DNA of 64,000 nucleotides from Chloroflexota bacterium. Its GTDB lineage: Bacteria; Chloroflexota; UBA11872. Position numbers and translations under genes: made by a program. The stretch is from assembly GCA_965219705.1 (NCBI GenBank), contig CBDCOK010000001.1:259-64258 (forward strand), read 5' to 3'. The notes beneath the pieces were generated by a model. That model was not told the origin of the DNA. It did not search any database and was given only the letters and a program-made list of their open reading frames with translations. How positions within the stretch are numbered: the stretch's first letter is position 1; every line of letters starts with the position of its first letter. Of the stretch, positions 8,463 to 55,576 are shown in pieces.

Positions 8463-8466
8463 TTCC

Positions 8467-29645: not shown

Positions 29646-29891
29646 CAATGAATCCAGGCGGTTTCTGGCCGCGCGTGGCGGCGAAGCGGGGTTGACGTAG
29701 TGGGCGTTATGCGACGCCGGCCGGGGCGGCCAGGCAGGGCAGGCTGCGGAACAACTCGCGGCAATGCTCCTCGAGGCCGTATCGAACGACGTCCGCGGCG
29801 GGCTCGATGCGCCATACCAACCTGAGCCTGAGTCCCCGAATCGGCCTTCCCCGTGGTAGGTTGGCTCTTCTCAGCAAAGGAGCAGAACACC
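29646..29891 (+). promoter_or_regulatory. Conserved ~250-bp leader of DGR-target paralogues (copy B); begins CAATGAATCC, contains GGGCGTTATG(C/G)GACGCCGG
   Basis: Near-identical leaders at 44686-44934 and 55345-55576. RBS AAAGGAG 8 nt before the ATG. Confidence 0.5.
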
Positions 29892-31460
29892 ATGCGGACC
29901 GTTGCCGACTCGATGCTGGTTCTGTGCGCGTTGGTGTGCACGGCGTCGGTGGCCTCGGCGCAGCCGCCGGTGGGTGCGCTGGCGATCGACGAGCGGCAGG
30001 GCGACCAGTATGGCTGGGCGGTGGACTACGAGACGGCGGGCGCCGCGCAGGCGCGGGCGCTCGGCGAGTGCGGCGCTGGTTGCCGGGTGGTGTTGACGTT
30101 CAACCGTTGCGCCGCCTACGCGGTAGATCAGGACGCGGACAGCACGGCGGTGGGCTGGGCGGAATCGTTCACGTCGTCGTCGTCGGCCCAGCAGGCGGCG
30201 CTGTCGGAATGCAGCTCACGGGGCGGTTCCGGTTGCGTCGTTCGGGTGTGGGGCTGCAACGGCCCGGTGGTCGAGGAGGCTCTGGGGCTCGACCGCGGGG
30301 CGCGTCAGCAGATTCAGCGGGGCCTGCAGTCGGCGGGCTTCGACCCGGGCGGTGCGGACGGCTTGTTCGGTCCGCGCACGCGCGCAGCGATTCGGCGCTG
30401 GCAGACGTCCCGTGGTTCTCGCGCGACGGGCTATCTGGATGGCGCGTCGGTGGCGGCGCTGCGACCGTCGGCACCGGGTCAGCCGACGTTCCGCCAGCGG
30501 GAGGCGGTCGGTGCGGACACGGCTGCGGCACCTGCCGTCTCCGCGCCGCCGCCGCCAGCGGCCTCCGCCGAGCTCGAGGGGCTGTTCTGGCAGTCGGTCA
30601 TGAACAGCACGAACCCGTCGGAGTTCGAGGCGTATCTGCGGCGGTTCCCGAACGGGCTGTTCAGCGAGCTGGCCGAGGCCCGTCTGGCGGCGCTGCGCGC
30701 GCCGGCGGGCGGGCCGCCGGGTGCGGCAGGGGCGGCGGTCGGCGGCGCCAGGCCGACCTCGGGTTCGCGGGCCTCCGGGGCGACGGCGCCGGCATCCGGG
30801 TCGCGGGTCGGCGCCGGGCCCGGGCGGGGCTTCGGTGCGGCGGCCGGCGCGGACGCTCGTCCCCGGCCGGGCGCGGTGTTCCGGGACTGCGACGTGTGCC
30901 CGGAGATGGTGGTGATGCCGGACGGCCGCCTGGCACTGGGCCGCTACGAGGTGACGGTGGGCGAGTATGGGGCGTTCGCGGCGGCGACGGGGGGCGGCGC
31001 GGGCGCCGGATGCATCACCGTTGGCGATGGCGATTCGTGGCGGGACCCCGGCTTTCCGCAGACGGATCGTCATCCTGTGACGTGCGTGAGCTGGGACGAC
31101 GCGCAGGCGTACGTGTCGTGGCTGAGCGGGCAGGCGGGGGCGACGTATCGGTTGCCGACGGAGACGGAATGGGACCGGGCGGCCGCGGGGTCCCAGCGCG
31201 GGTGCGACTATGGGCGGACGGACATCTTTGGCACGTGCCCGGTGGGCTCCTATGGGGCGAACGGCGCGGGTCTGTTCGGCATGGTCGGGAACTTGTGGGA
31301 ATGGACGCAGGACTGCTGGGAGGACTGTGGCCGCCGCGTGCTGCGCGGCGGCTCCTGGGACTTCGGCGCGGAGTTCCAGCGGCCCGGCGCGCGCTACTGG
31401 GACACCGCCGGCGGCCGGAGCGGCAACGTCGGTTTCCGTGTCGCGAGGACGCCGGATTAG
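29892..31460 (+). CDS. DGR-target paralogue B (same architecture as A); C-terminal VR at ~31329-31454
   Basis: MRTVADSMLVLCALVCTASVASAQPPVGALAIDERQGDQYGWAVDYETAGAAQ... ; ends RVLRGGSWDFGAEFQRPGARYWDTAGGRSGNVGFRVARTPD. Confidence 0.85.
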   Translation: MRTVADSMLVLCALVCTASVASAQPPVGALAIDERQGDQYGWAVDYETAGAAQARALGECGAGCRVVLTFNRCAAYAVDQDADSTAVGWAESFTSSSSAQQAALSECSSRGGSGCVVRVWGCNGPVVEEALGLDRGARQQIQRGLQSAGFDPGGADGLFGPRTRAAIRRWQTSRGSRATGYLDGASVAALRPSAPGQPTFRQREAVGADTAAAPAVSAPPPPAASAELEGLFWQSVMNSTNPSEFEAYLRRFPNGLFSELAEARLAALRAPAGGPPGAAGAAVGGARPTSGSRASGATAPASGSRVGAGPGRGFGAAAGADARPRPGAVFRDCDVCPEMVVMPDGRLALGRYEVTVGEYGAFAAATGGGAGAGCITVGDGDSWRDPGFPQTDRHPVTCVSWDDAQAYVSWLSGQAGATYRLPTETEWDRAAAGSQRGCDYGRTDIFGTCPVGSYGANGAGLFGMVGNLWEWTQDCWEDCGRRVLRGGSWDFGAEFQRPGARYWDTAGGRSGNVGFRVARTPD

Positions 31461-31707
31461 GTCTTGATTCTTTTCTTCTTTTAGTTCTTGGGGGGTCTGG
31501 GGGGCTGCGCCCCATAAGCGCTAACTTGTGTGGATCACATGGTTCTCGGGCAGCTCAGTCCAGCCGAAGTACGCGGAGAGTTGCGGTTGTCGGCGACGTG
31601 GCGGCTCCGCCAGCTCGCGGGAGATCGTTCGCCAGTCACTGATCAGGCGCGCCAGCGGGAGCGACGGTTCGATGGTGCGCGCGACCTGGTTGAGTACGAA
31701 CTTGAAG

Positions 31708-32067
31708 TCACGCCACGGGCTGCGGGGGCGCCGGCGCCGGCACGTCGTAGCCCCAGGGGGAAATCGCGCGGGCGTGGTGGATCAGCTTCTCCACCAACAG
31801 CGCCACGAACAGTTTCCCGTAGAGCCACGCCTTGGCGCTGTCGTCGTCGTACTTCGGCACGTGCCCCAACTGGGCCAGCGACTTGAAGCGCTTGAACACC
31901 AATTCGACCTGCCAGCGCAGGCGATACCACTCCAGCACGTCCGCGGCGGAAAAGGGCGGCTCGGGAAAGGTTGTCAAGACGATCACGTACTCGGCAAACC
32001 GCAGGGTGGCCGGTTGCACCTGCTTGCCTTTGCGGCTAGCGGCGCGACGGATCTTCTTGTGCGCCAA
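31708..32067 (-). pseudogene. IS4/IS5-superfamily DDE transposase C-terminal fragment
   Basis: ...VLEWYRLRWQVELVFKRFKSLAQLGHVPKYDDDSAKAWLYGKLFVALL is a typical DDE_Tnp_1 C-terminus. Confidence 0.45.
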
Positions 32068-32211
32068 GCGGATGGCTTCGGCCGACTTGATCTCGCTGAA
32101 CAGGCGGTGTTCGATGGGGGTTCCACTTCGACGTGGCGGGCGGGTAGTGGGCCACCCTCACCCGCAAGCCGTGTCGGTTGCAGAGGCGATGTTGCAGGTT
32201 CGGGTACCGAC

Positions 32212-33660
32212 AACATTCGTGTTGTGATACACGCTAAGGGCTACGCCTCGTGAGCTTGGCGGGGTCGATCTTGATCTCGCCGTAGAGGATGACGTTCTTC
32301 CACTCGATCGGGCTGACATGCCGCAGTAGGTCGGGGTCGAACGGGAAGTCGGGCGCGGCGGCCAGCCGTGAGATCTCCCGGGCCTGCCAGTAGACGATGC
32401 AGGCGAGAATCAGGGTCAGGCACGAGCACGCGTTCATCTGGTCGTAGACCTCTCGGGCGCTGATGCGCCCTCGCTGCCCGTAGTAGACGGCCCGCGCCAG
32501 GGCGTGGAGCTGCTCGACCTTGAGCAGGCCCCGCCGCACCTTCGCCCGCAGTTGCGGCTCGGACATGTACTGCAGCACGAACTCGGTCTTCAGCGCGCGG
32601 CCGAGCTCGCGGTTGGCGGCGTAGAAGCGGTTCGAGGCCTGGAAGCGGTTGAGCCTCTGCAGGGCGGCCGATGCCGTGGCGTGCCCGGCGGGGAAAGCCG
32701 CGTAGAACTGGCCGATGCGGTCCCACTGCTCGGCGATGAGGCGGAAGTTCACCGCCCGCCGGCCACGCTGGGAGGACCGGCTCGAGGACGCCGTGGTCGC
32801 GGGCCGGGTCGGCGCAGTAGATCCGCTGGCGGTGCAGGCTGCGAATGCGGGGGCAGAACCGCATGCCGATCATCACGAAGGCGGCGAAGTTGATCTCGGT
32901 GTAGCCGTGGGTGTCGGTGTAGTGCTCTTCGAGGTCGAGGTCGCTCTCGTGGTAGAGCACGCCGTCGAGCACGAAGGGCGCGTCGCGGTCGGTGCACTCG
33001 ATCGGGCGGCTGTAGAACGGGGCGTAGTTGTCGGCGACGAACGAGTAGAACTCGAGCGCGAAGTCGTTGAAGCGGGTGCTGTAGGTCCGCTGCAGAACCT
33101 TGTGCGGCATGGCGAAGCGCTGCCCGTCGCTGGCCGACGTCGTGCCGTCGCCCCAATGGCCGGCGGCGTCGAGGCGGGAGATGCCATGGACGATGGTGGC
33201 GAGCGCGGCGCGCTGGTTCTCCTCGACGAGACGCCAATCGCTGACGTGCTTGAGCCGCCTGTAGGCGATGTCGGGCGCGACCTTCTCCATGGTGTAGAGG
33301 CCGAGGTTGCAGCCGTGGGCGAGGATCGCGGCGAGCAGCGCGCACACCTCCCCGGGGTCGACCCGCTTCTCGCCGGGCTGCTGGGAAGTGGACGCTGAAC
33401 CCGAGGTCGTTCTCGACCTCGATGAGTAGGTCGGCGAGCCGGATCGTGCGGCTGCGGGCGTCCAGCCAGCGGTGCAGCTCGGCGAGGCGGTCCGATTGCG
33501 CCGGGTCGGGCTGCTCGGCCGGGTCCGTCTTGAGCCGCCCCCGTCGTCGTCGAACGCGACCTGCCGGTTGTCAGCGACACCCTCCATTTCGGTGGAGGTG
33601 TCCACCGACTCGTCGGCGGCGCTCGCGGCCGGCACCGGCACGGGAACCGCCACTGACGTG
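32212..33660 (-). mobile_element. tnpA: Truncated copy of the Tn3-family transposon (inverted repeat + tnpA C-terminal ~470 codons, frameshifted near 32760); cut by the ISL3-derived remnant
   Basis: Inverted repeat GGGTACCGACAACATTCGTGTTGTGATACACGCTAAGGG at 32212-32250 matches 51412-51450. The protein is ~97% identical to residues ~590-971 of TnpA at 51444-54359. The reading frame switches between ORFs 32241-33653 and 32234-32752. Confidence 0.7.
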
Positions 33661-33669
33661 GCCAGAGAC

Positions 33670-34012
33670 CGTCCCGGTCGCGGGTGGGTCGAGGTCGATC
33701 GATGGGCTCCGCCACGGGTAGCTACGCGACGGGCGGCGTGTCAACGCGCTGCGCGCGTCCTCCGCGTGCGCTTCGGCCCTGGCGGGTGACACGCCGGCCG
33801 TCCCTCCGCTCAAAGCGGAATTATGGGCCTTGCGGCCCTGCCTGGACGGCGGCGTCCAGGCCGTCGACGTCTTCACGCCGGACGCGCGAGGAACAGGCGG
33901 GCGCGTGGGCTTGGTATGCGTAGTCGCGAGGGCGCAGCAGAGGCCGTGAACACGGGGGTTCTTGGGGGTCGCGAGCCGTCGACCTGCGGCCGTTCCCACC
34001 CACACGAATTTG
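33670..34012. mobile_element. ISL3-derived internally deleted remnant (MITE-like, ~340 bp)
   Basis: Left-end-like segment GGGTGGGTCGAGGTCGATCGATGGGCTCCGCCACGGGTAGCTACGCGACGGGCGGCGTGTCAACGCGCTGCGCGCG and right end CCCACCCACACGAATTTGAGGAGA. It lacks the transposase gene. Confidence 0.5.
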
Positions 34013-34270
34013 AGGAGACTCGAACTCAAAGATCAAGGGGACTAGGAGTCTGCGCCGTAGAAAACTTTCGCCCCCACATGATGTGTTTAACTCGACATAT
34101 ACCCACAACATGCAGGGGTCGATCTGGCCTAGAAGCGTTCCAAGGCGCAGACTCCTAGGGGTGCTCGCAATGCGGGCAGTCCCGGTCCGCCACCGCAGCC
34201 TGCTCGTGGAGCTGATCAAGGAACGCCGACCCGTGTGACGGTCGACGAGCGCCCCACCATACCCTGAAGC

Positions 34271-36427: not shown

Positions 36428-36439
36428 GTCACATCTCCT

Positions 36440-37558: not shown

Positions 37559-37560
37559 GG

Positions 37561-39036: not shown

Positions 39037-39136
39037 GAACGTGGGGATGTCCCGTTGATTGTTGGATTTCGCGGGTGGCGGACTCCGTTCTTGATATAGA
39101 CGAGTCTACATTATGGTAGCGGCAAGATGAAAAGGG

Positions 39137-39210
39137 GCTCTCCTCAAACAGGTGTGGGTGGGTTGAGGTTGATGGGCGCGACGAGGAGTAGGCTCCGTTG
39201 GGCTACCGTT
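39137..39210 (+). repeat. ISL3 left-end fragment (~70 bp)
   Basis: GGCTCTCCTCAAACAGGTGTGGGTGGGTTGAGGTTGATGGGCGCGACGAGGAGTAG... matches the left inverted repeat and adjacent sequence, then diverges. Confidence 0.5.
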
Positions 39211-39351: not shown

Positions 39352-41286
39352 TCACGGCCGGTAACCGGACGGGCACTGACAGGGCCGACCGCCGCGAGCC
39401 CCAAGCGCATCGAGCCCGTCGCACGCCGCGTTGATCTCCTGGTGGCGGGCGTTGATCTGCTCGGGCGTCGATGACGTGCCGGCGCCTAGCGCGCACCAGG
39501 CACCAGCGGCCTGCAGCGCGAAGGCCCGGCGCTGAAAGTCGACGCCTGACCCGCACCAGCTCAGCCCCAGACTCCGCACGTTGGCCGGACGCGGATAGCC
39601 AGGAATCTCGCACGCCCGCCGCTGGCGTTGCGGCTGCGGCGGTGGCTCCGCCGCTGCGGCTGGCTGTCGGCGGTCCGGCCGGGTCGGCGTCTGACGTCGT
39701 GATTCCTGTCTCGACTCGTTGAATCGCGGGTCGTAGCGCGCGTCGTTCATCCGCCAGTAGGGCTCGGAGTCCTTCAGGACTTCGTTCTCTTGCGCGTAAT
39801 CCCACGGCGTCCGCCCCGCATCATCTGGAGCCAACGGGTCGGCCCCGGCTGCCAGCAACGGCTCGATCACGGCCGGATTCTTCTCGTTGTACCGCGCGGC
39901 ATGGTGCAACGGCGTGGAGCCGGACCGGGTGCGCGCCACGGGGTTGGCCCCGGCGCCGAGCAGCGCCTCGAGCACGGCCGGATTCTCGTTGTTCTGAGCG
40001 GCGAGATGCAGGAGCGTCCGGCCGTCGCTCGCCCGCCACGCACGGTTCGCTCCTGCCGCTAGCAGGGCTTCAAGCACGGCGACATTCTCGTTGCCCCACG
40101 CTGCCAAACTCAGAGGAGTGTCGCCGCCCTCAATGCTGACCTCTATATTGGCGCCGGCCGCCAACAGAAACTCGATCACAGCCGGACTCTCGGTGTTGCG
40201 AGCGGCGACATGCAGGGGCGTCCAGCCGCGGTCGGACCGGGCGTCGATGTCCGCCCCGGCCGCCAGCAGAAACTCGAGGACGGCCGGATTCTCGTTGTTT
40301 CTAGCGGCGTAATGCAGGAGAGTCAGGCCGTCAGTCGTTTGCATGTCTAGATTGCCGCCGGCGTCCAGAAGCACCTCAAGAATGGCTAGGTTCGAGCTAT
40401 TGGTGGCTGCCTCATGCAGCGGCGTGTGACCGTCACCGTCAGTCCGTGCCAGCATGTCGGCCCCAGCGGCGAGCAGAGCTTCGAGCACGGCTGCGTTCTC
40501 GTTTCTCCAGGCCGCCATGTGCAAGGGTGTGTGGCCGATGTCGTCCTGCGCCTCGATGTTTGCCCCAGCCGCCAGCAACGCCTCGAGAACGGCCGGATTC
40601 TCGTTGTTCTGAGCGGCGTGGTGCAGGGCCGTACTCTCACTGCCGTTGCGTGCTTCCAGGTTCGCCCCGGCCACCAGCAGAGCCTCGATCACGGTTGGGG
40701 CCTTGCTGCTCCAAGCCGCCCAGTGCAGCGGCGTGGTGCGGTCATCGTCGCGCGCCGCCACGTCCGCGCCGCCAGCAAGGCAGGCCTTTGCGTCCTCCGC
40801 GGTCGCCATCTCGAAGAACTCCTGCGTGTTCCAATCCTCGCAACTCACCGCCTGGACCGGAGCAGGTGACTCGGTGGCGGCCGGCGGCGCAGCGGGTGAC
40901 TCCGCGACCGGCGGCACATCGGTTGCGGCGACCTCGGACTCCGCAGGCCGCGGTTCGCCGGCCACGCGGAGCAGTTCGGCCTGCAGGCCGTCCAGATACC
41001 CGGTCGTTGGCATTCCCCGCGCCGCCTGCCAGCGACGAATCGCCTCGCGACTCCGCGGGCCGAACAACCCGTCCGGCGCGCCCGCGTCGAAGCCCTCGCT
41101 GCGCAGCCCCTGCTGAATTAGTCGACGCGCGGGTCGATCGAGACCCAGCGACGCTTCGACAGCCGCCGGATCCTGCGCGGCCGTGGCCACCGTCATCCGG
41201 AACGCCGCTCCCGGAGGCGGTACCAGAACCGCTGCCGAGACGACGAACGCCAGCAACAGAACGACGGCGAGCCACTCATGGCGCAT
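39352..41286 (-). CDS. Ankyrin-repeat protein with N-terminal signal peptide and peptidoglycan-binding domain
   Basis: MRHEWLAVVLLLAFVVSAAVL; GFDAGAPDGLFGPRSREAIRRWQAARGMPTTGYLDG (PG_binding_1); then ~12 ankyrin repeats (TPLHxAAxxxxxxVVEALLAAGAN); Cys-rich C-terminus. Confidence 0.8.
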   Translation of the reverse strand: MRHEWLAVVLLLAFVVSAAVLVPPPGAAFRMTVATAAQDPAAVEASLGLDRPARRLIQQGLRSEGFDAGAPDGLFGPRSREAIRRWQAARGMPTTGYLDGLQAELLRVAGEPRPAESEVAATDVPPVAESPAAPPAATESPAPVQAVSCEDWNTQEFFEMATAEDAKACLAGGADVAARDDDRTTPLHWAAWSSKAPTVIEALLVAGANLEARNGSESTALHHAAQNNENPAVLEALLAAGANIEAQDDIGHTPLHMAAWRNENAAVLEALLAAGADMLARTDGDGHTPLHEAATNSSNLAILEVLLDAGGNLDMQTTDGLTLLHYAARNNENPAVLEFLLAAGADIDARSDRGWTPLHVAARNTESPAVIEFLLAAGANIEVSIEGGDTPLSLAAWGNENVAVLEALLAAGANRAWRASDGRTLLHLAAQNNENPAVLEALLGAGANPVARTRSGSTPLHHAARYNEKNPAVIEPLLAAGADPLAPDDAGRTPWDYAQENEVLKDSEPYWRMNDARYDPRFNESRQESRRQTPTRPDRRQPAAAAEPPPQPQRQRRACEIPGYPRPANVRSLGLSWCGSGVDFQRRAFALQAAGAWCALGAGTSSTPEQINARHQEINAACDGLDALGARGGRPCQCPSGYRP

Positions 41287-41607: not shown

Positions 41608-42594
41608 CTAGATCACGATGCGCTCGATCTCGTCGACGGTGATCGTGTCCGCCGTCCGGTCGTAGAGCTTCGTCGTCTTCGGCGAGGCGTGCCCGGCGAT
41701 CCGCTGCGCGTGATCGAGCGTCCCCCCGTTCGACAGATACGCCGTGATCCCCGTCGCCCGGAACGTGTGGCAGCAGGTCGACGGCGGCAGATCCGCCGCC
41801 GCCGCCCGCCGCTTGATCATCGCCAGGACGAGACGCCGCGACAGCGCCCGCCCCGTCAGATGCCACCCCGCGGGGTCGAGGCTCTGGAAGAGCGGCGCCT
41901 TCGCCTCGCCCGGCCCGGCCGCCGCGAGATAGTCGTCGAGCGCCTCGGCCGCCCGATGGTGCGCCGGGACGTCGTGGCGCTTGCCGCCCTTCTCGTGCAG
42001 CCTGAGCCAACCCCGGCTCTCCTGCCGGAAGTAGTCCTGCCGCCGCATCGCGATGACCGCACTCACCCGCGCGAAGCTGTAGAGCATCACCGAGACGAGC
42101 GCCCGGTCGCGCCGGCCCGCGAGGGTAGTCGTGTCGATCGCCTCGAGCAGCCGGCGGGCCTCGGCCGGCGACACCGCCGGCGTCGCGCCCTTGGTGACGA
42201 CGTGCTTCGGTCCCCGAACCGCCGCGGCCGGGTTCACCGGGAGGACCTGGCTGACGACGAGCCAGTCGCCGAGCATGCGGATCGCGGCCAGGTGCTGTTT
42301 GACCGTCGGCGCCGACCCGGGGTGCGTCCGGATGTAGGCCGCCACGTGCAGCGGCGAGACCGCCTCGAGGGCCAGCCCGCGCGCCTCGCACCACGCCAGA
42401 AACTGCCCCACCGCCCGCCCGTACGCCGCCCGCGTGCGCCGGTTGGCGATCCGCGCCGCGAAGAACTCGAGAAACTTCCCCACCGCCGCCGGCCCCGCGT
42501 CGACGACGAGCCGCGGCAGCAGGGGGCCGCCCCGCCCGGCGGCCGCCGGGCGCAGGGCGCCCGCCCGCTCGACCAGCGCCACGTCTTCGCTCAT
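41608..42594 (-). CDS. Tyrosine recombinase/integrase, intact copy (329 aa from the ATG at 42594)
   Basis: MSEDVALVER...core-binding domain...RDRALVSVMLYSFARVSAV (R)...GWLRLHEKGGKRHDVPAHH (H-x-x-R region)...HTFRATGITAYLSNGG...GHASPKTTKLYDRT (catalytic Y). Fragments of the same gene recur at 5648, 10860, 13744 and 14366. Confidence 0.8.
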   Translation of the reverse strand: MSEDVALVERAGALRPAAAGRGGPLLPRLVVDAGPAAVGKFLEFFAARIANRRTRAAYGRAVGQFLAWCEARGLALEAVSPLHVAAYIRTHPGSAPTVKQHLAAIRMLGDWLVVSQVLPVNPAAAVRGPKHVVTKGATPAVSPAEARRLLEAIDTTTLAGRRDRALVSVMLYSFARVSAVIAMRRQDYFRQESRGWLRLHEKGGKRHDVPAHHRAAEALDDYLAAAGPGEAKAPLFQSLDPAGWHLTGRALSRRLVLAMIKRRAAAADLPPSTCCHTFRATGITAYLSNGGTLDHAQRIAGHASPKTTKLYDRTADTITVDEIERIVI

Positions 42595-42987
42595 CCCGTC
42601 ACCTCTCCCCCGCCGCCGGCCGCCTCCTTCCCCGCCGGCGAGCGCCTCGAACCGTTCGTAGTCGCTGACGAGCGCCTGGGCCAGCGCGTAGAGTCGTCCG
42701 ACGGCGTCCTTCGCCCCGCTGAAGCGCACCTCGATCCGGTCCGCCTCGACCGTCACCCCGTCGGGCAGTCCCGACAGGCGCGCATCGAGCGCCTCGACCG
42801 GCACGGCCACGCGGATCCCGGTCAGCCGCGCCCGGCGGATCTCGGTGACCACCTTCTCGCGCCGCGTCTCCTCGCGGCGGAAGGCGGCGCGCTTGCGGTG
42901 CCTCCGAAGCTGCCGCAGGAGCTCGGCCCGCGGCAGCGTCAGCAGGTGCCCGGTCCGGTGGGCGCCGAAGGCCGTCATCAGCTGCAC
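42595..42987 (-). CDS. Integrase-associated HTH protein (N-terminus truncated by the Tn3 inverted repeat; in-frame with the integrase, no intervening stop)
   Basis: ...LFGVSKVRAVQLMTAFGAHRTGHLLTLPRAELLRQLRRHRKRAAF... is homologous to 14564-15190. Homology ends at 43016 where the Tn3-type inverted repeat begins. Confidence 0.4.
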
Positions 42988-43802: not shown

Positions 43803-44685
43803 ATGGCACGGAGAACCGTCCTGACCGGCCGGCAGAGGTCGGCCCTGTTTTCCCTTCCGCAACGCGAGGCGGACCTGCTGCGCCACTACACCCTGAGCGA
43901 CGAGGACCTGCAGAACATCGAGGTCCGGCGGCGTCCCCGCAACAAGCTGGGCTTCGCGCTGCAGCTGTGCGTCCTCCGCTACCCGGGCCGTCTGCTGGCC
44001 CCGGGCGAGTTCGTTCCCCCGGTGGTCGTGGACTTCATCGGCCGCCAGCTCCACCTGGACGGGGAGGAGCTCGGCGACTACGCGGTGCGGGCCGAGACCC
44101 TGCACGAGCATCTGGCGGAGCTGCGCCGCCTGTATGGATTCCGGTCCTTCTCGGGCGGCGCGGCGCGTGAGCTCGTCGAGCGGCTCCGCGAAGAAGCGCC
44201 CCAGGCGCAGTCGAACGAGGACCTGGTCCGGAGGTTCGTCGAGGCCTGTCGGCGCACGCGGACCATCCTGCCGGCCACGACGACGATCGAGCGGCTCTGC
44301 GCCGACGCGCTGGTCGACGCGGAACGCCGGATCGAAGCCCGCATCGCCGAGCGGGTGCCGCCCGGGCTGCGGCGCGACCTCGAGCATCTGCTCGAAGAGA
44401 CGGTCGACGCCGGCGTGACGCGGTTCGTGTGGCTCAGGCAGTTCGAGCCGGGCAGCAATTCGGCCGACGCCAACCGGTTGCTGGACCGCCTCGAGCACCT
44501 CCGGCGCCTCGCGGTTCCGGAAGGCCTCTTCGGCGACATCCCTCCGCATCGGATCACGCGGCTGCGCCGGCAGGGGGAGCGCTACTTCGCCGACGGGCTC
44601 CGCGAGCTCCCGGACAACCGCCGCCTCGCGAGCATGCTGGGCCGGCGAAGCCGGGCCCGCGCCTGCAGGCGGAAGCCGATCCGAG
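43803..44685 (+). pseudogene. tnpA: Tn3-family transposase N-terminal fragment (DUF4158 region), 3'-truncated
   Basis: MARRTVLTGRQRSALFSLPQREADLLRHYTLSDEDLQNIEVRRRPRNKLGFALQLCVLRYPGR... is the Tn3 TnpA N-terminal domain. The ORF reads through into the paralogue-D leader. Confidence 0.65.
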
Positions 44686-44934
44686 CAATGAATCCGGGGG
44701 GGTTGTTCGCCTCAGGCGGGGGGCGAAGCGGGGTCAACGTAGTGGGCGTTATGGGACGCCGGCCTGGGGCGGCCAGGCCGGCCAGGCTGCGGAACAACTC
44801 GCGGCAATGCTCCTCGAGGCCGCATCGAACGACGTCCGCGGCGGGCTCGATGCGCCATGCCAACCTGAGCCTGAGTCCCCGAATCGGCCTTCCCCGTGGT
44901 AGGTTGGCTCTCCTCAGCAAAGGAGCGGAACACC
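44686..44934 (+). promoter_or_regulatory. Conserved leader of DGR-target paralogues (copy D)
   Basis: See 29646-29891. Confidence 0.5.
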
Positions 44935-46611
44935 ATGCGGACCGTTGCCGACTCGATGCTGGTTCTCTGCGCGTTGGTGTGCACGGCGTCGGTAGCCTCG
45001 GCGCAGACGCCGGTGGGGGCGCTGGCGACCGACGAAGGTGAGCAGTGGGGCTGGGCGGTGGACTACGAGACGGCGGGCGCCGCGCAGGCGCGGGCGCTCA
45101 GCGAGTGCGGCGGTGGTTGCCGGGTGGTGTTGACGTTCAACCGTTGCGCCGCCTACGCCGCGGACCAGGACGCGGCCAGCACGGCGGTGGGCTGGGCGGA
45201 ATCGTACGGCTCGGCGGCTGCGGCTCAGCAGGCGGCGCTGACTGAGTGCAGCTTGCGGGGCGGCTCTGGCTGCATCGTTCGGGTGTGGGGCTGCAACGGC
45301 CCGGTGGTCGAGGAGGGGTTGAGCCTCGACCGTGCGGCGCGTCGTCAGGTTCAGGAGGGCCTGCAGGCCGCCGGCTTCGACCCGGGCGGCGTGGACGGGA
45401 TGTTCGGTCCGCGGACGCGGGCGGCGATCCGGGGTTGGCAGTCGTCGCGGGGTGCGCGGCCGACGGGGTATCTGGACGGTCCGGGGGTCGAGGCGCTGCG
45501 GTCGGCCGGCGGTTCCGGTCCGGCGACGGGAGCCGCGTCCCCGGCGCCCGTGGCACGGCAGCCGGCGTCCACCGCTGCGCTGTCCGCGCCGCCCGCGGCC
45601 GGCGCGGAACTGGAGGGCCTGTTCTGGCAGTCCATCATGAACAGCGCGAACCCGGCGGAGTTCGAGGCGTATCTCGCGCAGTTCCCGAACGGGGTGTTCC
45701 GGGCCCTGGCCGAGGCCCGCCTGGCGGCGCTGCGCGCGCCGGCGGGTACTCCGTCCGGGGCGGCCGGGTCGCGAGTCGACGGCGCGGGGTCGCCGGCTGT
45801 CCGGTCACCGGTCCCGGGCGGGCGGGTCGCCGGAGCTCCCGCTCCAGCCGCCGGGATTGCCGCGGGCGACGCTGCGCGTCCGCGGCCGGGCGACGTGTTC
45901 CGGGACTGCGACGCCTGCCCGGAGCTGGTGGTGGTACCGGCGGGCCGGTTCCGGATGGGCTGCGTCTCCGGCACGGGCTGCCGGGACAGCGAGCTGCCGG
46001 TGCACGAGGTGGCGGTGGCGTCGTTCGCGCTGGGCGTGCACGAGGTGACGTTCGCGGAGTACGAACGCTTCGCCGCGGCGACGGGCCGTGACCGGCCGAA
46101 CGATCGAGGTTGGGGCGGGGGCGCCCGTCCGGTGATCAACGTGTCGTGGGAGGACGCGGCGGCCTACGCGGACTGGCTGTCCGGCGAGACGGGCGCGCGG
46201 TATCGGTTGCCGAGCGAGTCGGAGTGGGAGTATGCGGCGCGGGCCGGCGCCGAGACGGCGCACGCCTGGGGGAACGACATCGGCTTTCGCGAAGTCTGCA
46301 ACTGGGCGAACTACTATGGCTGCAGAGACGAGACGGAGCCGGTGGGCTCGTTAGCGGCGAACGGGTGGGGCCTGCACGACATGCACGGCAACGTGTTGGA
46401 GTGGGTGGCGGACTGCTGGCATCGCAGCTACGCGGGTGCACCGCGCGATGGCTCGGCGTGGACGAGCGGCGGTTGCGGTGCTCGTACATTGCGGGGCGGT
46501 TCCTGGAGGAACGGTAGTCTGGACAGTCTCCGCTCGGCCCACCGCGACACAGCCCCTGCCGGGCACCGGTTAGACACCTTCGGTTTTCGCGTGGCGAGGA
46601 CGCTGCGTTGA
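44935..46611 (+). CDS. DGR-target paralogue D (more canonical FGE-sulfatase/SUMF1-like domain); VR-like C-terminus ~46488-46608
   Basis: Same N-terminal architecture. C-terminus ...HGNVLEWVADCW...GARTLRGGSWRNGSLDSLRSAHRDTAPAGHRLDTFGFRVARTLR. The 3' end GGTTTTCGCGTGGCGAGGACGCTG resembles the VR-A 3' end. Confidence 0.8.
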   Translation: MRTVADSMLVLCALVCTASVASAQTPVGALATDEGEQWGWAVDYETAGAAQARALSECGGGCRVVLTFNRCAAYAADQDAASTAVGWAESYGSAAAAQQAALTECSLRGGSGCIVRVWGCNGPVVEEGLSLDRAARRQVQEGLQAAGFDPGGVDGMFGPRTRAAIRGWQSSRGARPTGYLDGPGVEALRSAGGSGPATGAASPAPVARQPASTAALSAPPAAGAELEGLFWQSIMNSANPAEFEAYLAQFPNGVFRALAEARLAALRAPAGTPSGAAGSRVDGAGSPAVRSPVPGGRVAGAPAPAAGIAAGDAARPRPGDVFRDCDACPELVVVPAGRFRMGCVSGTGCRDSELPVHEVAVASFALGVHEVTFAEYERFAAATGRDRPNDRGWGGGARPVINVSWEDAAAYADWLSGETGARYRLPSESEWEYAARAGAETAHAWGNDIGFREVCNWANYYGCRDETEPVGSLAANGWGLHDMHGNVLEWVADCWHRSYAGAPRDGSAWTSGGCGARTLRGGSWRNGSLDSLRSAHRDTAPAGHRLDTFGFRVARTLR

Positions 46612-46638
46612 GTCTTGATTCGTCCCCTCTTTACCTCC

Positions 46639-46676
46639 TAGGGTACCGACCAGATCCGTGTAGAAATACACCCTAA
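46639..46676 (+). repeat. Tn3-family-type terminal inverted repeat remnant (GGGTACCGACCAGATCCGTGTAGAAATACACCCTAAC)
   Basis: Resembles the 51412 inverted repeat (GGGTACCGAC...CGTGT...ATACAC..CTAA). Probably the outer end of the Tn3 relative whose tnpA C-terminus is at 48272-48954, now separated by the IS5 insertion. Confidence 0.35.
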
Positions 46677-48165: not shown

Positions 48166-48275
48166 TGCTAAGGACAGTGATCGATATAGATTTGCCGACT
48201 TCCGCAGGGCCCAGCCCCTTTTCGCTGCTCGGCACGCCCTGCACACGGCAAGGTAATTTCCGGCAGCATCCTAAG
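48166..48275 (+). repeat. 110-bp repeat starting with the ISAzo13-type terminal sequence CTAAGGACAGTGATCGATATAGATTTGCC; direct copy at 49125-49235
   Basis: ~95% identical to 49125-49235. The first ~35 nt match the IS end at 5631-5661. Confidence 0.55.
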
Positions 48276-48954: not shown

Positions 48955-49124
48955 TCAGCACGATGGCAGTATCCCGAGTTGCTCGAGGAGGGATACGTCC
49001 CCGTTCCCGTTGGATTCCTCCGCCACTATGCGAGCCTGAAGCCGTACCCGCTCACCTCGGGGGAGGCACTCTTCGTCGTCCACCTGATGGCGTTCAAATG
49101 GGACAGCGACTCGCCGTTTCCGTC

Positions 49125-49235
49125 CTTAGGACAGTGATCGATATAAATTTGCCGACTTCCGCAGGGCCCAGCCCCTCTTTCGCTGCTCGGCACGCCCTGC
49201 ACACGGCAAGATAATTTCCGGCAACATCCTTACAA
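49125..49235 (+). repeat. Second copy of the 110-bp ISAzo13-end-like repeat
   Basis: See 48166-48275. Confidence 0.55.
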
Positions 49236-49481
49236 GAGGCTCGCCTCGAGAATGGGCGTTTCGGTCAAGATGGCACGGCGCCACGCGCAGAGCCTCGATC
49301 AGAAGGGCTACCTCCGTCGCCTGGTCCGCGTCGGCCAGACCAACCGCTTCAACCTCACGCCGTTGTTCGACGCCCTGCGGTCGGCCGTCATGACACGGCG
49401 CGCACCGTCGACACAGGCGCAAGAGTCCGCGCCAGAACGACTGGTTGACTTGCCGGCGTGAGCCTCCCCCGCGCGACCGAA

Positions 49482-49613
49482 CTCGACCAGCCGCTCCAGC
49501 ACGTCGAGCGCCGTCACCTGCAGCCGGTCGCCCAGCAGGAACTTCTGCCGCTGCGGGAACTTCTCCACCGTCGGCACCAGCCACCCCCAGGAGGAAGAGA
49601 ACAGAAGAATCAA
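49482..49613 (-). pseudogene. avd: Avd gene 5' fragment (remnant of a second DGR cassette next to target C)
   Basis: WLVPTVEKFPQRQKFLLGDRLQVTALDVLERLVE is ~90% identical to Avd at 17285-17602. Homology ends after ~44 codons. Confidence 0.55.
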
Positions 49614-49616
49614 GAC

Positions 49617-51173
49617 CTAATCAAGCGTCCTCGCGACACGGAAACCGAAGTCGGTGACCCGGCCGCGGACGTGGTCCCAGAAGCGCGCGCCGGGCCGCTC
49701 CGCGACGTCGTACCAGGAGCCGCCGCGCAGCACGCGATGGACGCAGTCGCCCTCCCAGCAGTCCTCCGTCCATTCCGACAGGTTCCCGACCATGTCGAAC
49801 AGGCCCGCGCCGTTCGCACCGTACGAGCCGACCGGGCACGTGCTAAGGTTCCCAGTCCGCTCACGGTCGCAGCCGCGCTGGGAACCCGCCGCCGCCCGGT
49901 CCCATTCCGCCTCGGTCGGCAAGCGATAAGTCGCCCCGGCCGTCCGGCTCAGCCACGACACATACGCCTGCGCGTCGTCCCAGCTCACGCACGTCACAGG
50001 ATGACGGTCCGTCTGCGGAAAGCCCGGGTCCCGCCGCGAATCGCCGCCAAAGGTGAGGCATCCGCCGCCCGCACCGCCGCCCGTCGCCGACGTGAACGCC
50101 CCATACTCGCCCACCGTCACCTCGTAGCGGCCCAGCGCGAGACGGCCGTCCGGCATCACCACCATCTCCGGGCACACCTCGCAGTCCCGGAACACCGCGC
50201 CCGGCTGCGGACGCGCGTCCGCGCCGGCCGCAGGCCCGCCGACCCGCGACCCGGACGCCGCCGCGGAGGCGCCGGAGACGCGCGAACCCGAAGCCGCGGT
50301 CCCGGCGCCGCCGCCGCGCGCCCCTGCCGCGCCGGACGCCCCGCCCGCCGGCGCGCCCAGCGCTGTCAGCCGGGCCTCGGCCAGCTCGCTGAACAGCCCG
50401 TTCGGGAACCGCCGCAGATACGCCTCGAACTCCGATGGGTTCGTGCTGTTCATGATTGACTGCCAGAACAGGCCCTCGAGCTCGGCAGAGGCGGCCGGCG
50501 CGGCCGCTGGCGGTGGCTGCGGCGGCGGCGCGGAGACGGCAGGCGGCGCAGCCGCGGCGGCGGCGGCCGGCTCCCGCTGGCGGAACGTCGGCTGACCCGG
50601 TGCCGACGGCCGCAGCGCCGCCGCCGACGGCCCATCCAGATAGCCCGTTGCGCGAGAACCCCGAGACGTCTGCCAGCGCCGAATCGCTGCGCGCGTGCGC
50701 GGACCGAACAAGCCGTCCGCACCGCCCGGGTCGAAGCCCGCCGACTGCAGGCCCCGCTGAATCTGCTGACGCGCCCCACGGTCGAGGCCCAGACCCTCCT
50801 CGACCACCGGGCCGTTGCAGCCCCACACCCGAACGAGGCATCCTGTGCCGCCACGCGAGCTGCACTCAGTCAGCGCACGCTGGCGGGCGCCGGCCGGCGA
50901 GGAGTACGACTCCCCCCAACCCACCGCCGTGCTGTCCGCGTCCTGGTCCGCCGCGTACGCGGCGCAGCGCTCGAACGTCAGCACCACCGAGCAGCCCGAG
51001 CCGCACTCCGACAGCACCCGCTGGCGAGCGGCCGCCGCCGTCTCGTAGTCGACTGCCCACCCCCACCGGTCGCCCTGGCGTTCGTCGACCGCCAGCGCAC
51101 CCACCGGCGGCTGCGCCGCGGGCGCCGACGCCATCCGCAGCAACACCCAGAAGACGAGCGCCAATCGGACCAT
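49617..51173 (-). CDS. DGR-target paralogue C (full length); VR at ~49623-49739
   Basis: MVRLALVFWVLLRMASAPAAQPPVGALAVDERQGDRWGWAVDYETAAAARQ... ; ends RVLRGGSWYDVAERPGARFWDHVRGRVTDFGFRVARTLD. Confidence 0.85.
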   Translation of the reverse strand: MVRLALVFWVLLRMASAPAAQPPVGALAVDERQGDRWGWAVDYETAAAARQRVLSECGSGCSVVLTFERCAAYAADQDADSTAVGWGESYSSPAGARQRALTECSSRGGTGCLVRVWGCNGPVVEEGLGLDRGARQQIQRGLQSAGFDPGGADGLFGPRTRAAIRRWQTSRGSRATGYLDGPSAAALRPSAPGQPTFRQREPAAAAAAAPPAVSAPPPQPPPAAAPAASAELEGLFWQSIMNSTNPSEFEAYLRRFPNGLFSELAEARLTALGAPAGGASGAAGARGGGAGTAASGSRVSGASAAASGSRVGGPAAGADARPQPGAVFRDCEVCPEMVVMPDGRLALGRYEVTVGEYGAFTSATGGGAGGGCLTFGGDSRRDPGFPQTDRHPVTCVSWDDAQAYVSWLSRTAGATYRLPTEAEWDRAAAGSQRGCDRERTGNLSTCPVGSYGANGAGLFDMVGNLSEWTEDCWEGDCVHRVLRGGSWYDVAERPGARFWDHVRGRVTDFGFRVARTLD

Positions 51174-51443
51174 CGGGAACCTCCTCGAAGTCGTTGCACC
51201 CCCGCCGGCCCGCGCGCCAGGCCCGCCACGACGGCTGCCGCGATCCTATCGCCGGTGTCCGTTGCAGCAAACCGCGAGTTGTCCTGCTCCGCCGGTCCTT
51301 GTTGGCAATCTTCTGAAACCGCGGTGTATGTTCCAGCTGGACATACAACGCGGTGGACTAAACCGCTACGGCGGTAGACGCTCAGTCGACCCGCCGGCAC
51401 TGCCGCGTCCAGGGTACCGACACCATTCGTGTTGTGATACACG

Positions 51444-54359
51444 CTAAGGGCGTCGCATCTTGAGCTTGGCGGGGTCGATCTTGATCTCGCCGTAGAGGAT
51501 GACGTTCTTCCACTCGATCGGGCTGACATGCCGCAGCAGATCGGGGTCGACCGGGAAGTCCGGCGCGGTGGCCAGCCGTGAGATCTCCCGGGCCTGCCAG
51601 TAGACGATGCAGGCGAGAATCAAGGTCAGGCACGAGCACGCGTTCATCTGGTCGTAGACATCGCGGGCGCTGATGCGCCCCCGCTGCCCGTAGTAGACGG
51701 CGCGCGCCAGGGCGTGGAGCTGCTCGACCTTGAGCAGGCCCCGCCGCACCTTCGCTCGCAGCTGCGGCTCGGACATGTACTGCAGCACGAATTCGGTCTT
51801 CAGCGCCCGGCCGAGCTCGCGGTTGGCGGCGTAGAAGCGGTTCGAGGCCTGGAAGCGGTTGAGCCTCTGCAGGGCGGCCGACGCCGTGGCGTGCCCTGCG
51901 GGGAACGCCGCGTAGAACTGGCCGATGCGGTCCCACTGCTCGGCGATGAGGCGGAAGTTCACCGCCCGCCGGCCGCGCTTGAGGACCGGCTCGAGGACGC
52001 CGTGGTCGCGGTCCGGGTCGGCGCAGTAGATCCGCTGGCGGTGCAGGCTGCGGATGCGCGGGCAGAACCGCATGCCGACCATCCCGAAGGCCGCGAAGTT
52101 GATCTCGGTGTAGCCGTGGGTGTCGGTGTAGTGCTCTTCGAGGTCGAGGTCGCTCTCGTGGTAGAGCACGCCGTCGAGCACGAAGGGCGCGTCGCGGTCG
52201 GTGCACTCGATCGGGCGGCTGTAGAACGGGGCGTAGTTGTCGGCGACGAAGGAGTAGAACTCAAGCGCGAAGTCGTTGAAGCGCGTGCTGTAGGTCCGCT
52301 GCAGCACCTTGTGCGGCATGGCGAAGCGCTGTCCGTCGCTGGCCGACGTCGTGCCGTCGCCCCAATAGCCGGCGGCGTCGAGGCGGGAGATGCCGTGGAC
52401 GATGGCGGCGAGCGCGGCCCGCTGGTTCTCCTCGACGAGACGCCAATCGCTGACGTACTTGAGCCGCCTGTAGGCGATGTCGGGGGCGACCTTCTCCATG
52501 GTGTACAGGCCGAGGTTGCAGCCGTGGGCGAGGATCGCGGCGAGCAGCGCGCACACCTCCCCGGGGTCGACCCGCTTCTCGCCGGGCTGCTGGAAGTGGA
52601 CGCTGAACCCGAGGTCGTTCTCGACCTCGATGAGCAGGTCGGCCAGCCGGATCGAGCGGCTGCGGGCGTCCAGCCAGCGGTGGAGTTCGGTGAGGCTGTC
52701 CGATTGCGCCGGGTCGGGCTGCTCGGCCGCGTCCGTCTTCAGTCGCCACCCGTCGTCGTCGAACGCGACCTGCCGGTTGTCAGCGACACCTTCCAGGAAC
52801 CGGTCGAACGCATCCGACAGACGCGCCTTCAGTTGCTCGACCGCCGCAGCGGGATCGACGGGGAACCCGGTTCGCACCCAGAACGCTTCGCGGACCTGCT
52901 CCCACCGCGCGGCGGGCAGGAAGAACGCCTCGAACCGGCCGAAGTTCTTCGCGCCGTCGATGGCGAGGTTGCCGGTCTGGATCTCGTCGCGCACCTTGAG
53001 GAACAACGCGCTCTCCCAGCGTCGGCGGTCCGTCACGCCGTCATGGCGGATGAGCGGCTGCAGCGCCGCCGGGGCGAAGTCGAGCGGCGCATGGGGCGGA
53101 GCGCCGCGGCGCCCCGCCGCGCGGTGTTCGCGGTAGGCCCGCAGCGCCGACAGCGTCGGCGACGTCCCCTCGCCCTGCTCGTCGACGAACTTCATCCTGC
53201 TCAGAAACGGCCCGGCGAACTGGCTCAGCCCGGCGTGCCGCTCGACCGTCTGCTCGAAGCGGGCCTTCCGGTCGCCCCGCGTCCAGTTCACCAGGTCGGA
53301 CTGGTCCTCGCGCAGCTGCGCCTCGGGCACGGTTGACAGCAGCCGGACCCGCAACTCGTCGTCGCCGACGTCGGGATCGAGCAGCACCGCGCCGAGCTGG
53401 CGGTAGCGGTGAACGATCCGGTCGACGGCCTGGCGTTGCGCCTTGAGCATGTCGTCGAGGCGGGTCTCGACCAGCTTGCGATTGCGGTCGAGGAGCTTGC
53501 CGTACATGTCGACGGCTTGGTCGAGCGTGTCGCGCCACGTCTGGTGCAGGAAGCACACCAGCGCGAGGTGACGGCGTGGGGCCGCCATCCTGCGCACCCG
53601 GTCGGCTGACGCGGTTCGCACGCTGTGGAACAGGATCCGCTGGTAGTTGCCGTTGACCCAGTCCACGTTGACTCCCAGTACGCCGGTCGCCTCGATCAGT
53701 TCCAGCCGCGCCAGCAGCCGCTTCATGCCCCCGACCGACGGGTTCGACGAACTCGCCTTGATCCGGTTCAAGGGCGAGTGCGGCTGGTCGTCGTCGACGG
53801 CGACCAGCGCGTCAAGACCTTCGCGCATCGGTGCCGACAGGCGCTCGGCCATGCGTTGCGTCAGCAACGTCCGGGCCTTGTGTCGGGCCGCCCCTATCGC
53901 GCGGCGCAACACCGGATCGGACGGTGCGAGAACGTGCTCGTCGCGGAGCCAGGCGCGCGCCCGAGCCAGCAGCGAGGCGGTCCGCTCGAGCCGCAACGCC
54001 TCGTCCTCGAGGAACCGCGCCAGCCGTTCTCCGGCGGCGGCCTCGAAAGCGCGCAGACGCAGGTACTCGCCGATGCGCTGCTGATGCTCCGAGACCGTCT
54101 GCTGCCGGCTGGCGTAGGCGTGGATCGTCTCGGCGTCGGCGCCTAGCTGCAGGGCCGCGAACCTCAGGATCTCCCCGTCGATCTCCAGGGGCGTCTGTTG
54201 GGGGAATCTGCCGAGCACACGCACGAAGGCGACCTGGTACGCGAAACCCAACCGGTTGTGGGAGCCCCGCCGCAGGGCGATCTCGCGGCGGTCGGCCTCG
54301 AGGAAGGTGGCATCGCGGACCAAGCGGGGGCGGGAGACGTCGGGGTCGGAGACCGGCAC
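51444..54359 (-). CDS. tnpA: Tn3-family transposase TnpA (971 aa)
   Basis: Full-length: N-terminal DUF4158-like region, central ...GEKRVDPGEVCALLAAILAHGCNLGLYTMEKV..., C-terminal DDE region ...DTHGYTEINFAAFGMVGMRFCPRIRSL...MNACSCLTLILACIVYW. Confidence 0.85.
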   Translation of the reverse strand: MPVSDPDVSRPRLVRDATFLEADRREIALRRGSHNRLGFAYQVAFVRVLGRFPQQTPLEIDGEILRFAALQLGADAETIHAYASRQQTVSEHQQRIGEYLRLRAFEAAAGERLARFLEDEALRLERTASLLARARAWLRDEHVLAPSDPVLRRAIGAARHKARTLLTQRMAERLSAPMREGLDALVAVDDDQPHSPLNRIKASSSNPSVGGMKRLLARLELIEATGVLGVNVDWVNGNYQRILFHSVRTASADRVRRMAAPRRHLALVCFLHQTWRDTLDQAVDMYGKLLDRNRKLVETRLDDMLKAQRQAVDRIVHRYRQLGAVLLDPDVGDDELRVRLLSTVPEAQLREDQSDLVNWTRGDRKARFEQTVERHAGLSQFAGPFLSRMKFVDEQGEGTSPTLSALRAYREHRAAGRRGAPPHAPLDFAPAALQPLIRHDGVTDRRRWESALFLKVRDEIQTGNLAIDGAKNFGRFEAFFLPAARWEQVREAFWVRTGFPVDPAAAVEQLKARLSDAFDRFLEGVADNRQVAFDDDGWRLKTDAAEQPDPAQSDSLTELHRWLDARSRSIRLADLLIEVENDLGFSVHFQQPGEKRVDPGEVCALLAAILAHGCNLGLYTMEKVAPDIAYRRLKYVSDWRLVEENQRAALAAIVHGISRLDAAGYWGDGTTSASDGQRFAMPHKVLQRTYSTRFNDFALEFYSFVADNYAPFYSRPIECTDRDAPFVLDGVLYHESDLDLEEHYTDTHGYTEINFAAFGMVGMRFCPRIRSLHRQRIYCADPDRDHGVLEPVLKRGRRAVNFRLIAEQWDRIGQFYAAFPAGHATASAALQRLNRFQASNRFYAANRELGRALKTEFVLQYMSEPQLRAKVRRGLLKVEQLHALARAVYYGQRGRISARDVYDQMNACSCLTLILACIVYWQAREISRLATAPDFPVDPDLLRHVSPIEWKNVILYGEIKIDPAKLKMRRP

Positions 54360-54478
54360 GGCTCTGTCCGAGATAAACGGGCGTTCTGACCGAACAGTTC
54401 AGCAGCAGGGAACATGACGCGTTCCATGTCCCGCATCTGTCAGATACAATACGCGCAGCTGCATTCCATGGACAGGCC

Positions 54479-55093
54479 GTGAAGACCGTCGCCTATCTGC
54501 GCGTCTCGACCCCGCAGCAGGACGTGAGCAGCCAGCGCCTCGCCATCCTGGAGTACGCGCGGGAGCACGACCTCCACATCGACGACTTCATCGAGGCGAC
54601 TGCCTCCGGACAGGCGTCCGAGAAGCGCCGCCGGCTCGACGAGCTGACGAACGCCCTGCAGCACGGCGACCGTCTGGTCGTCAGCGAACTCTCCCGGCTC
54701 GGCCGGTCGCTGGGTCAGGTCGTCGCCGTGCTCGACGCCCTCGCCAAGGCGGGCGTCGCCTTCGTGGCCCTGAAGGAGAACATCCGCGTCGAGGGCAAGC
54801 GCGACATCCAGACCAAGGTCATGACCACGCTCTTCGCGCTGTTCGCCGAGGTCGAGCGCGACCTGATCTCCGAGCGCACCCGCGAGGGCCTCGCCAAGGC
54901 CAGGGCCTCGGGCCGCAAGCTCGGGCGCCCGAAGGGATCGCTGGGCGTCTCACGGCTTGACGGCAAGGAGGACGAGATCCGGCGCTTCCTCGAGCTGGGC
55001 GTCTCGAAGACCGCCATCGCCAAGATCACCGGCGTGTCCCGGACCGCGCTCTACAGCTTCATGACCACCAGAGGGCTCAGGCCGAGCCGTTAG
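54479..55093 (+). CDS. tnpR: Serine recombinase/resolvase TnpR
   Basis: MKTVAYLRVSTPQQDVSSQ... gives the catalytic Ser in YLRVS. 204 aa with a C-terminal HTH (GVSKTAIAKITGVSRTALY). The stop lies inside the right inverted repeat. Confidence 0.85.
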   Translation: MKTVAYLRVSTPQQDVSSQRLAILEYAREHDLHIDDFIEATASGQASEKRRRLDELTNALQHGDRLVVSELSRLGRSLGQVVAVLDALAKAGVAFVALKENIRVEGKRDIQTKVMTTLFALFAEVERDLISERTREGLAKARASGRKLGRPKGSLGVSRLDGKEDEIRRFLELGVSKTAIAKITGVSRTALYSFMTTRGLRPSR

Positions 55094-55344
55094 CGTGTAT
55101 CAGAGCACGAATGGTGTCGGTACCCTTGAGGAGAACGAGGACCGCCGCGTCGAGCTCGAAACCCACCGGAGGCCGACGGCTCGAGGCACTCTCGACCACG
55201 TCGCCGACTGCACGAGGCGGACGCTGACGCACCCGCCATCCGGACGGGCCGGTCAGCGCCGTGCGATAGATGGCCCCCGACGCACCTGAGGCATGTCCGG
55301 GCGGCGCAACGCCGGATCGAGTCGGCCGCCTCGGCGGGTTCGGG

Positions 55345-55576
55345 CAATGAATCCTGGTGTTTTCGGCCGCTGGGGCGGGGCAACGCCAAGTTAACGTAGT
55401 GGGCGTTATCAGACGCCGGCCTGGGGCGGCTAGGCTGCGGAACAACTCGCGGCAATACTCCTCGAGGACGTATCGAACGATGTCCGCGGCGGGCTCGATG
55501 CGCCATGCCAACCTGAGTCCCCGCATCGGCCTTCCCCGTGGTAGGTTGGCTCTTCTCAGCAAAGGAGCAGAACACC
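55345..55576 (+). promoter_or_regulatory. Conserved leader of DGR-target paralogues (copy E)
   Basis: See 29646-29891. Confidence 0.5.

Follow-up and report, generated by a model that had tools for sequence, protein, structure and literature searches.

We analysed a 64,000-nucleotide stretch of DNA (the window) from a contig of a Chloroflexota bacterium (GenBank accession number CBDCOK010000001.1, assembly GCA_965219705.1), which contains five paralogous genes, A to E. The contig is plasmid-like, and its relatives assign the window to Vicinamibacterales (Acidobacteriota). The genes are surface-protein genes that encode a signal peptide, a DUF4189 domain, a PG_binding_1 domain and an FGE-sulfatase/C-type-lectin-fold (CLec) domain. 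Paralogues B, D and E share a block of DNA upstream of their start codons, and it is this block, and in particular its left edge, that we describe here. An earlier reading of the sequence (the original prediction) had presented the block as a leader of ~250 bp with a discrete start and a mobile-looking boundary. It had also stated that the upstream regions of A and C are different, which was borne out: both genes differ from B, D and E in their upstream DNA and in their signal peptides, and all five paralogues become homologous at the signal-peptide cleavage site.

Alignment of the B, D and E loci showed that ~250-255 bp before the ATG are common to the three genes. The homology runs unbroken from the sequence CAATGAATCC into the coding sequence, and the DNA further to the left is unrelated. 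CAATGAATCC has exactly three occurrences in the window (29646, 44686 and 55345), all on the + strand, and the end of the shared stretch, AAAGGAGCAGAACACC-ATG, is present three times, against 0.02 expected by chance. A fourth complete copy was found on a 263-kb metagenome contig (L082), where it adjoins a truncated IS66 element and has the same left end as in B, D and E. In anchored tests, the 10 nt to the left of CAATGA were alike at 6-8 of 10 positions (significant; consensus CGATCCGGT), and positions -30 to -11 and those further out showed background similarity among the copies. The edge is thus at 29636/7 (B), 44676/7 (D), 55335/6 (E) and 5716/7 (L082). The shared leader with a discrete start is therefore real in B, D and E, with its edge ~10 nt to the left of the predicted coordinate. 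In copy E, the outer motif and the CA of CAATGA together read GGGTTCGGGCA (55336-55346). A 40-nt internal motif that had been described as common to all three copies fits B and D only, at three mismatches or fewer.

The left ends of the four copies, which span two replicons, coincide within ~2 nt. Local alignment of the 250 nt to the left of the edge revealed no significant similarity in any pair of flanks among B, D, E and L082. With one boundary, four copies and four unrelated left flanks, the leaders are not simple read-through lacking a common discrete 5' boundary, and the description of the boundary as mobile-looking is upheld. On at least four occasions the block, the signal-peptide codons and the DUF4189 portion of the gene were copied together as a single unit, with the same left end and different neighbours (Table 1).

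Table 1 Features of the shared upstream block, the paralogues and their surroundings (window coordinates).
Feature	Position	Strand	Remarks
Outer motif CGATCGGGT, left edge of copy B	29637-29645	+	Semi-conserved; homology among copies begins here
Distal upstream block, copy B	29646-29842	+	~197 nt, begins CAATGAATCC; alignment, nhmmer
Hairpin motif in block, copy B, 45-60 nt	29672-29729	+	GGGCGTTATnnGACGCC at 29702-29718; stem invariant, loop variable
Probable core promoter/short 5' UTR, copy B	29843-29891	+	TGGTAGGTT; extended -10-like 29854-29862; AAGGAG 29877-29882; ATG 29892
Outer motif (44677-44685) and distal block, copy D	44677-44885	+	Alignment, nhmmer
Probable core promoter/5' UTR, copy D	44886-44934	+	-10-like at 44897-44905
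Outer motif GGGTTCGGG and distal block, copy E	55336-55527	+	Alignment, nhmmer
Probable core promoter/5' UTR, copy E	55528-55576	+	-10-like at 55539-55547
Paralogue A	17744-19279	-	
Paralogue B, coding sequence	29892-31460	+	Signal peptide, DUF4189, PG_binding_1, FGE-sulfatase/CLec
Paralogue C	49617-51173	-	
Paralogue D, coding sequence	44935-46611	+	3' flank abuts Tn3-type inverted repeat at 46640
Paralogue E, 5' fragment	55577-55862	+	Signal peptide and most of DUF4189; cut at 55862/3
XerC/D-like tyrosine recombinase	41608-42987	-	Candidate junction enzyme
N-terminal fragment of Tn3-family tnpA (Tn3 #2)	43803-44631	+	Homology ends at 44631
Filler between tnpA break and block edge	44632-44676	+	45 nt, no assignment; no match elsewhere
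Right inverted repeat of Tn3 #1	55089-55125	-	210 nt left of copy E edge
Tn3 #2-like end fragment, joined to E	55863-55977	-	115 nt; resolvase 3' end and 38-bp inverted repeat

Searches for further copies of the leader were negative in plasmids (blastn), in the upstream regions of 79 homologous loci, and in scans for exact patterns across GTDB genomes, JGI metagenomes and IMG/VR, the sole matches being two chance ones to an 18-nt pattern in IMG/VR (L080/L081). A profile nhmmer search over all fetched DNA returned four strong copies only (B, D, E and L082), all attached to the gene; the distal ~200 nt are present in these four only, and the block was never seen away from the gene. The block has no similarity to the DNA that precedes the genes in A, C, L002, L037, L083 and L087, no inverted partner of the block terminus is present in the window, and a search for the outer motif CCGATCCGGTCA elsewhere gave no informative match. 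Divergence along the block is greatest in its first ~75 nt, and identity falls toward the edge, as seen in the B/D/E profile. B and D are 96% identical across 29723-29972, compared with 78-88% deeper in the gene, and this difference points to recent gene conversion.

Comparison with relatives divides the leader into two layers. We obtained the closer relatives L083 (three copies), L084, L085, L086, L087 and L002 via their proteins, and in all of them homology with B is restricted to the DNA rightward of ~29843-29851. Rightward of 29843, L086 and B have 95% identity, and leftward L086 is unrelated; its upstream DNA showed no significant similarity when considered as a diverged version of the block. 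The last ~45 nt of the leader are common to paralogue A and to relatives in other Vicinamibacterales genomes. Here all 11 aligned relatives, paralogue A among them, have the sequence CCGTG(A/G)TA(G/C)GTT unchanged. The core motif TG(G/A)TA(G/C)GTT is located ~30-38 nt before the ATG, followed by an AAGGAG ribosome-binding site (RBS), and matches the extended -10 pattern TGnTAnnnT at a set distance from the start that is kept across the relatives. Since the core motif fits this pattern, the last ~45 bp are probably an extended -10 promoter with a ~25-nt 5' untranslated region (UTR) of the gene. Of the suggestion that the whole leader is a promoter, the part that stands concerns these ~45 nt, with their extended -10-like motif, RBS and conservation in distant relatives.

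The unit lies in a mosaic region of at least three Tn3-family elements, several insertion sequences (IS) and inverted or deleted pieces. It had been proposed that, at copy D, the first base of the leader is the point at which the tnpA frame of Tn3 #2 is cut (44685/44686). This placement is wrong by 45-54 nt. Neither the intact tnpA of L002 (93% identity) nor plasmid Tn3-family transposases align beyond 44631 (aa ~276-278), the frame past this point stays open by chance only, and the 45-nt filler separates the break from the edge. The cut in tnpA was not made by the block itself. In L002 (6198-9400), the window segments 43803-44631 (+) and 48906-48271 (-) correspond to parts of one contiguous tnpA. 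The two pieces in the window are mutually inverted and their middle is missing, so the D unit sits inside an inversion-plus-deletion. The Tn3-type inverted repeat 3' of D is split by an IS. Copy E lies outside Tn3 #1, as the right repeat of that element precedes the E edge. Tn3 #1 occupies 51412-55125 (3.7 kb; inverted repeat, tnpA, res, tnpR, inverted repeat) and has no 5-bp target duplication (GTCCA vs TTGAG), which implies later recombination between Tn3 copies. We considered and rejected the block as a Tn3 end: it resembles none of the window's five Tn3 ends (z <= 2.5), and its boundary carries no ~38-bp Tn3 terminal inverted repeat. The hairpin matches 13 nt of the DNA that flanks the Tn3 #2-like inverted repeat at 55975, which was judged to be chance. 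The window also contains three copies of an ISL3-family element that are 99.7-100% identical (1635-3226, 6519-8103 and 8460-10052), two in tandem and inverted relative to the first.

The original prediction had placed A and C in cassettes of diversity-generating retroelements (DGRs). Paralogue A is a true DGR target, and 15 of the 19 mismatches between its variable region and the template repeat (TR, 15434-15559) are at TR adenines. The cassette of C is incomplete, with only ~100 nt of avd left (49482-49584, 91% identical to 17483-17585). The mismatches at TR adenines are ambiguous for B (18/38) and C (17/35), and the ratio for D (13/51) shows that this TR does not target it. A bAvd-like accessory gene (PF22296, E = 3.8e-17), which has no separate entry in the list of open reading frames (ORFs), lies directly downstream of A at ~17288-17602 (-). 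The reverse transcriptase (RT) frame (16555-17643, -) stops where group II intron RNA domains start (RF01999 at 16413-16530 and RF00029 at 15948-16023); a group II intron may be located inside or just after the DGR RT gene (15948-17643, -), with the TR beyond it. Exact-protein look-ups of B, D and E gave no records. The truncated E frame (55538-55909) continues in frame into the last resolvase codons beside the Tn3 #2-like inverted repeat, and the resulting 110-aa product is present in public databases. Many of the relatives are likewise 5' gene fragments with DUF4189 only, and E, L082, L084 and L086 are all cut between the B-equivalent positions 30093 and 30262. About 900 nt upstream of leader B, a 115-nt stretch (28627-28745), inside a small ORF without a family match, is 91% identical to L083 3871-3983 and 7579-7695, both just upstream of L083 paralogues. 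An ankyrin-repeat protein (39352-41286, -) has a PG_binding_1 domain whose DNA shows ~71% similarity to its counterpart in the paralogues (40956-41160 vs 45307-45511).

We identified one candidate for an enzyme acting at the edge, the XerC/D-like tyrosine recombinase encoded between B and D. Its best NCBIfam matches are XerD and XerC, far below the cut-offs, with a faint match to integron integrases. A second copy in the window (10844-14986) is split by a ~2.7-kb IS (DDE_Tnp_1, 11782-13632), and a third is represented by fragments only (5656-5899). The 3' end of the recombinase gene is a sharp edge of homology in four lineages, and in the relatives L007 and L008 the recombinase directly follows a DGR target gene. 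In L007 and L008, the recombinase stop codon is adjoined by 11 nt that are identical, in the same register, to GGGTTCGGGCA at the E edge, and the similarity extends to ~17 nt. None of 20,000 random genomic samples reached the score of this match (empirical P < 5e-5). It provides one significant lead in favour of the proposal that the leader may be the end of a cassette mobilised by site-specific recombination. In L086, the sequence GGTTCGGTC occurs twice at its own junction. In L008 (7397-7490), the recombinase stop codon is immediately followed by a 15-nt direct repeat, GAACCCCGGCGACAC, whose two occurrences are 72 nt apart, and this pair looks like tandem att-type cores.

Our tentative explanation is that a promoter-bearing 5' gene segment has been co-amplified, and that the reuse of one edge implies end-specific joining. 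The "leader" would then be upstream DNA rather than an RNA leader, with a core promoter and, to its left, a layer of lineage-specific non-coding DNA. As one 45-nt motif of this ~200-bp layer also has relatives elsewhere, the layer is probably, at least in part, captured older (fossil) DNA, and it may now hold binding sites. The reused left end would need an end-specific joining process, because four unrelated flanks end within ~2 nt, unlike random duplication breakpoints. The likeliest such process would be site-specific recombination by the XerC/D-like tyrosine recombinase, travelling with DGR cassettes, and the semi-conserved outer motif of ~10 nt would be a target-derived core sequence. A more specific version is improbable on the present evidence: the edge would be the conserved arm of an asymmetric recombination site of the DGR-associated recombinase, and 5' modules (block, signal peptide and DUF4189) as well as whole DGR target genes would be exchanged or recruited as cassettes.

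Several observations weigh against the co-amplification of such a segment by end-specific joining. The other recombinase-end flanks are no more similar to the outer motif of B, D and L082 than expected by chance, and the E motif is inverted, not direct, relative to the L008 element. The searches revealed neither a second end of the unit nor a terminal repeat nor a target duplication, and every copy is disrupted on its right side. A generic sigma-70 scan found no canonical promoter, and conservation is what carries the promoter assignment. The covariation test on the hairpins described below is circular, as one set of four sequences served both to derive the structure and to test it. A second att-like core in the window was found at chance level only, and no tRNA genes were found as integration targets.

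An unlikely alternative, though the strongest of those we considered, is that a replicon rich in transposons underwent ordinary segmental duplication. One ancestral duplicated segment would end at the edge, later deletions and inversions driven by Tn3 elements and IS would have swapped the flanks, and gene conversion would have kept the gene-proximal part alike. The mosaic structure of the region, the decay of identity toward the edge and the D flank, which extends just 45 nt before the next breakpoint, are all in keeping with this history. However, random breakpoints should not coincide three times, and the four independent flanks end within ~2 nt with no pair sharing a flank.

Next, a neighbouring protein gene could have been duplicated together with the paralogues, the block being a decayed piece of its 5' or 3' part. 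The minus strand of the block has a coding-like pattern of GC content at third codon positions (GC3) over ~30 codons. Weaker relatives of its 45-nt hairpin motif (GTTGACGGATCGGCCGTTATnGGACGC) occur in unrelated contexts at window 3667-3701 and L084 859-919, where both read LTDRPL(W/L)DA in frame. At the position of the LTDRPLWDA motif, the block itself has an in-frame stop. Against this reading, the minus-strand peptide has no homologue in Pfam, in plasmids (tblastn) or among 5.8 billion proteins; neither strand of the block yielded a protein homologue, with tblastx returning compositional noise only. Indels between the copies are not multiples of three and break every frame, and the substitutions are mostly non-synonymous in either frame. 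We consider a decayed gene of this kind quite unlikely as the explanation of the block.

The hairpins themselves raise the question of a structured cis-regulatory RNA, either a long 5' UTR or a divergent small RNA, with a promoter at or to the left of the edge and the edge as the transcription start. Three hairpins or palindromes are conserved in the distal block. Of the 85 columns predicted to be paired in the conserved two-thirds, 7 vary, none breaking its pair, compared with 28 of 71 unpaired columns, and five predicted pairs carry compensatory changes, the structure being derived from the same four sequences. Against this, Rfam covariance models gave no match to the block at the gathering score or at E <= 1, and its minimum free energy is no lower than that of shuffled sequence (z = +0.40 on the + strand and +0.66 on the - strand). 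The conserved -10-like motif is downstream of the block, and no promoter-like site was found upstream. The suggestion of a regulatory 5' UTR is thus unsupported for the distal 200 nt, and we regard a structured RNA as very improbable.

Least probable of all is a non-autonomous insertion resembling a miniature inverted-repeat transposable element (MITE), or an invertible promoter segment, of ~205 bp with short inverted repeats (GCCGATCCGG ... CCGAATCGGC): in D and L082 the two edges form a 9/10 inverted repeat that in D extends to ~13 of 14 aligned positions (one gap), both edges are sharp relative to L086, and size and position are like those of known invertible promoters, but in D and L082 this repeat falls short of significance (P about 0.05-0.14) and it is absent from B and E (P = 0.67-0.86), all four copies have the same orientation, and there is no consistent target duplication and no copy away from the gene. 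We rejected an IS or a MITE as the identity of the block on the same observations, namely the lack of significant terminal repeats and of a consistent target duplication, and the constant attachment to the gene.

The reused edge is the interesting part of the block. If it is a recombinase site, DGR target genes would be linked to a cassette-type exchange system in Acidobacteria and a short, testable DNA site would be defined; the many 5' fragments of this gene family in databases would also be explained. Cassette exchange, if true, would supplement DGR mutagenesis with a second layer of variation that arises by recombination. Should the edge be no more than a duplication scar, the findings amount to corrections to the map, with the probable promoter in the last 45 bp, the tnpA break at 44631 and a truncated cassette for C.

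Among known systems, invertible promoter switches, such as fimS and the invertons of Bacteroides and Clostridioides, resemble the locus in having a ~200-bp segment before a surface-protein gene, with short edge repeats (here in two copies) and tyrosine recombinases nearby. The block differs in that its repeats are not significant, all four copies have a single orientation and the conserved -10 motif is outside the segment. Passenger genes of Tn3 elements and their modular exchange are similar in that the copies lie between Tn3-family ends and the breakpoints are in tnpA and tnpR. However, the edge has neither the 38-bp GGGG...ACGCTAAG repeat (ACGYTAAG end) nor similarity to Tn3 ends, and E is outside Tn3 #1. 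Integron cassettes (attI/attC, IntI) also show a discrete boundary beside varying neighbours, and the recombinase has a faint integron-integrase match. We rejected an integron cassette: the edge reads (C)CGATCCGGT/CAATGAATCC and has no GTTRRRY core, there is no attC-type imperfect palindrome at the 3' end, the unit would carry its own promoter, and the recombinase is not adjacent.

DGR multi-target families with remote targets, for example in cyanobacteria (PMC7517822), have several paralogous CLec/FGE-type targets per replicon, only some of which adjoin the RT, avd and TR, as is the case here. That literature is about the 3' variable region, and our literature searches turned up no common 5' block with a constant edge. 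Finally, we compared the edge with the crossover sites (sfx) of shufflons, which are served by Rci-type tyrosine recombinases, as in R64 (PMC4176322, PMC11852207). The block is not a shufflon because all three window copies are direct (+ strand) and none is inverted. Moreover, the window site is upstream of the gene and not inside it, and the recombinase scores as XerC/D-like, not Rci, with matches far below the cut-offs. The edge GCCGATCCGGT agrees with sfx GCCAATCCGGT at 10 of 11 positions, a match that may be chance. The two systems nevertheless have in common an asymmetric junction, with a conserved core and one conserved arm next to a variable side, a tyrosine recombinase encoded nearby, and paralogous segments of surface-protein genes.

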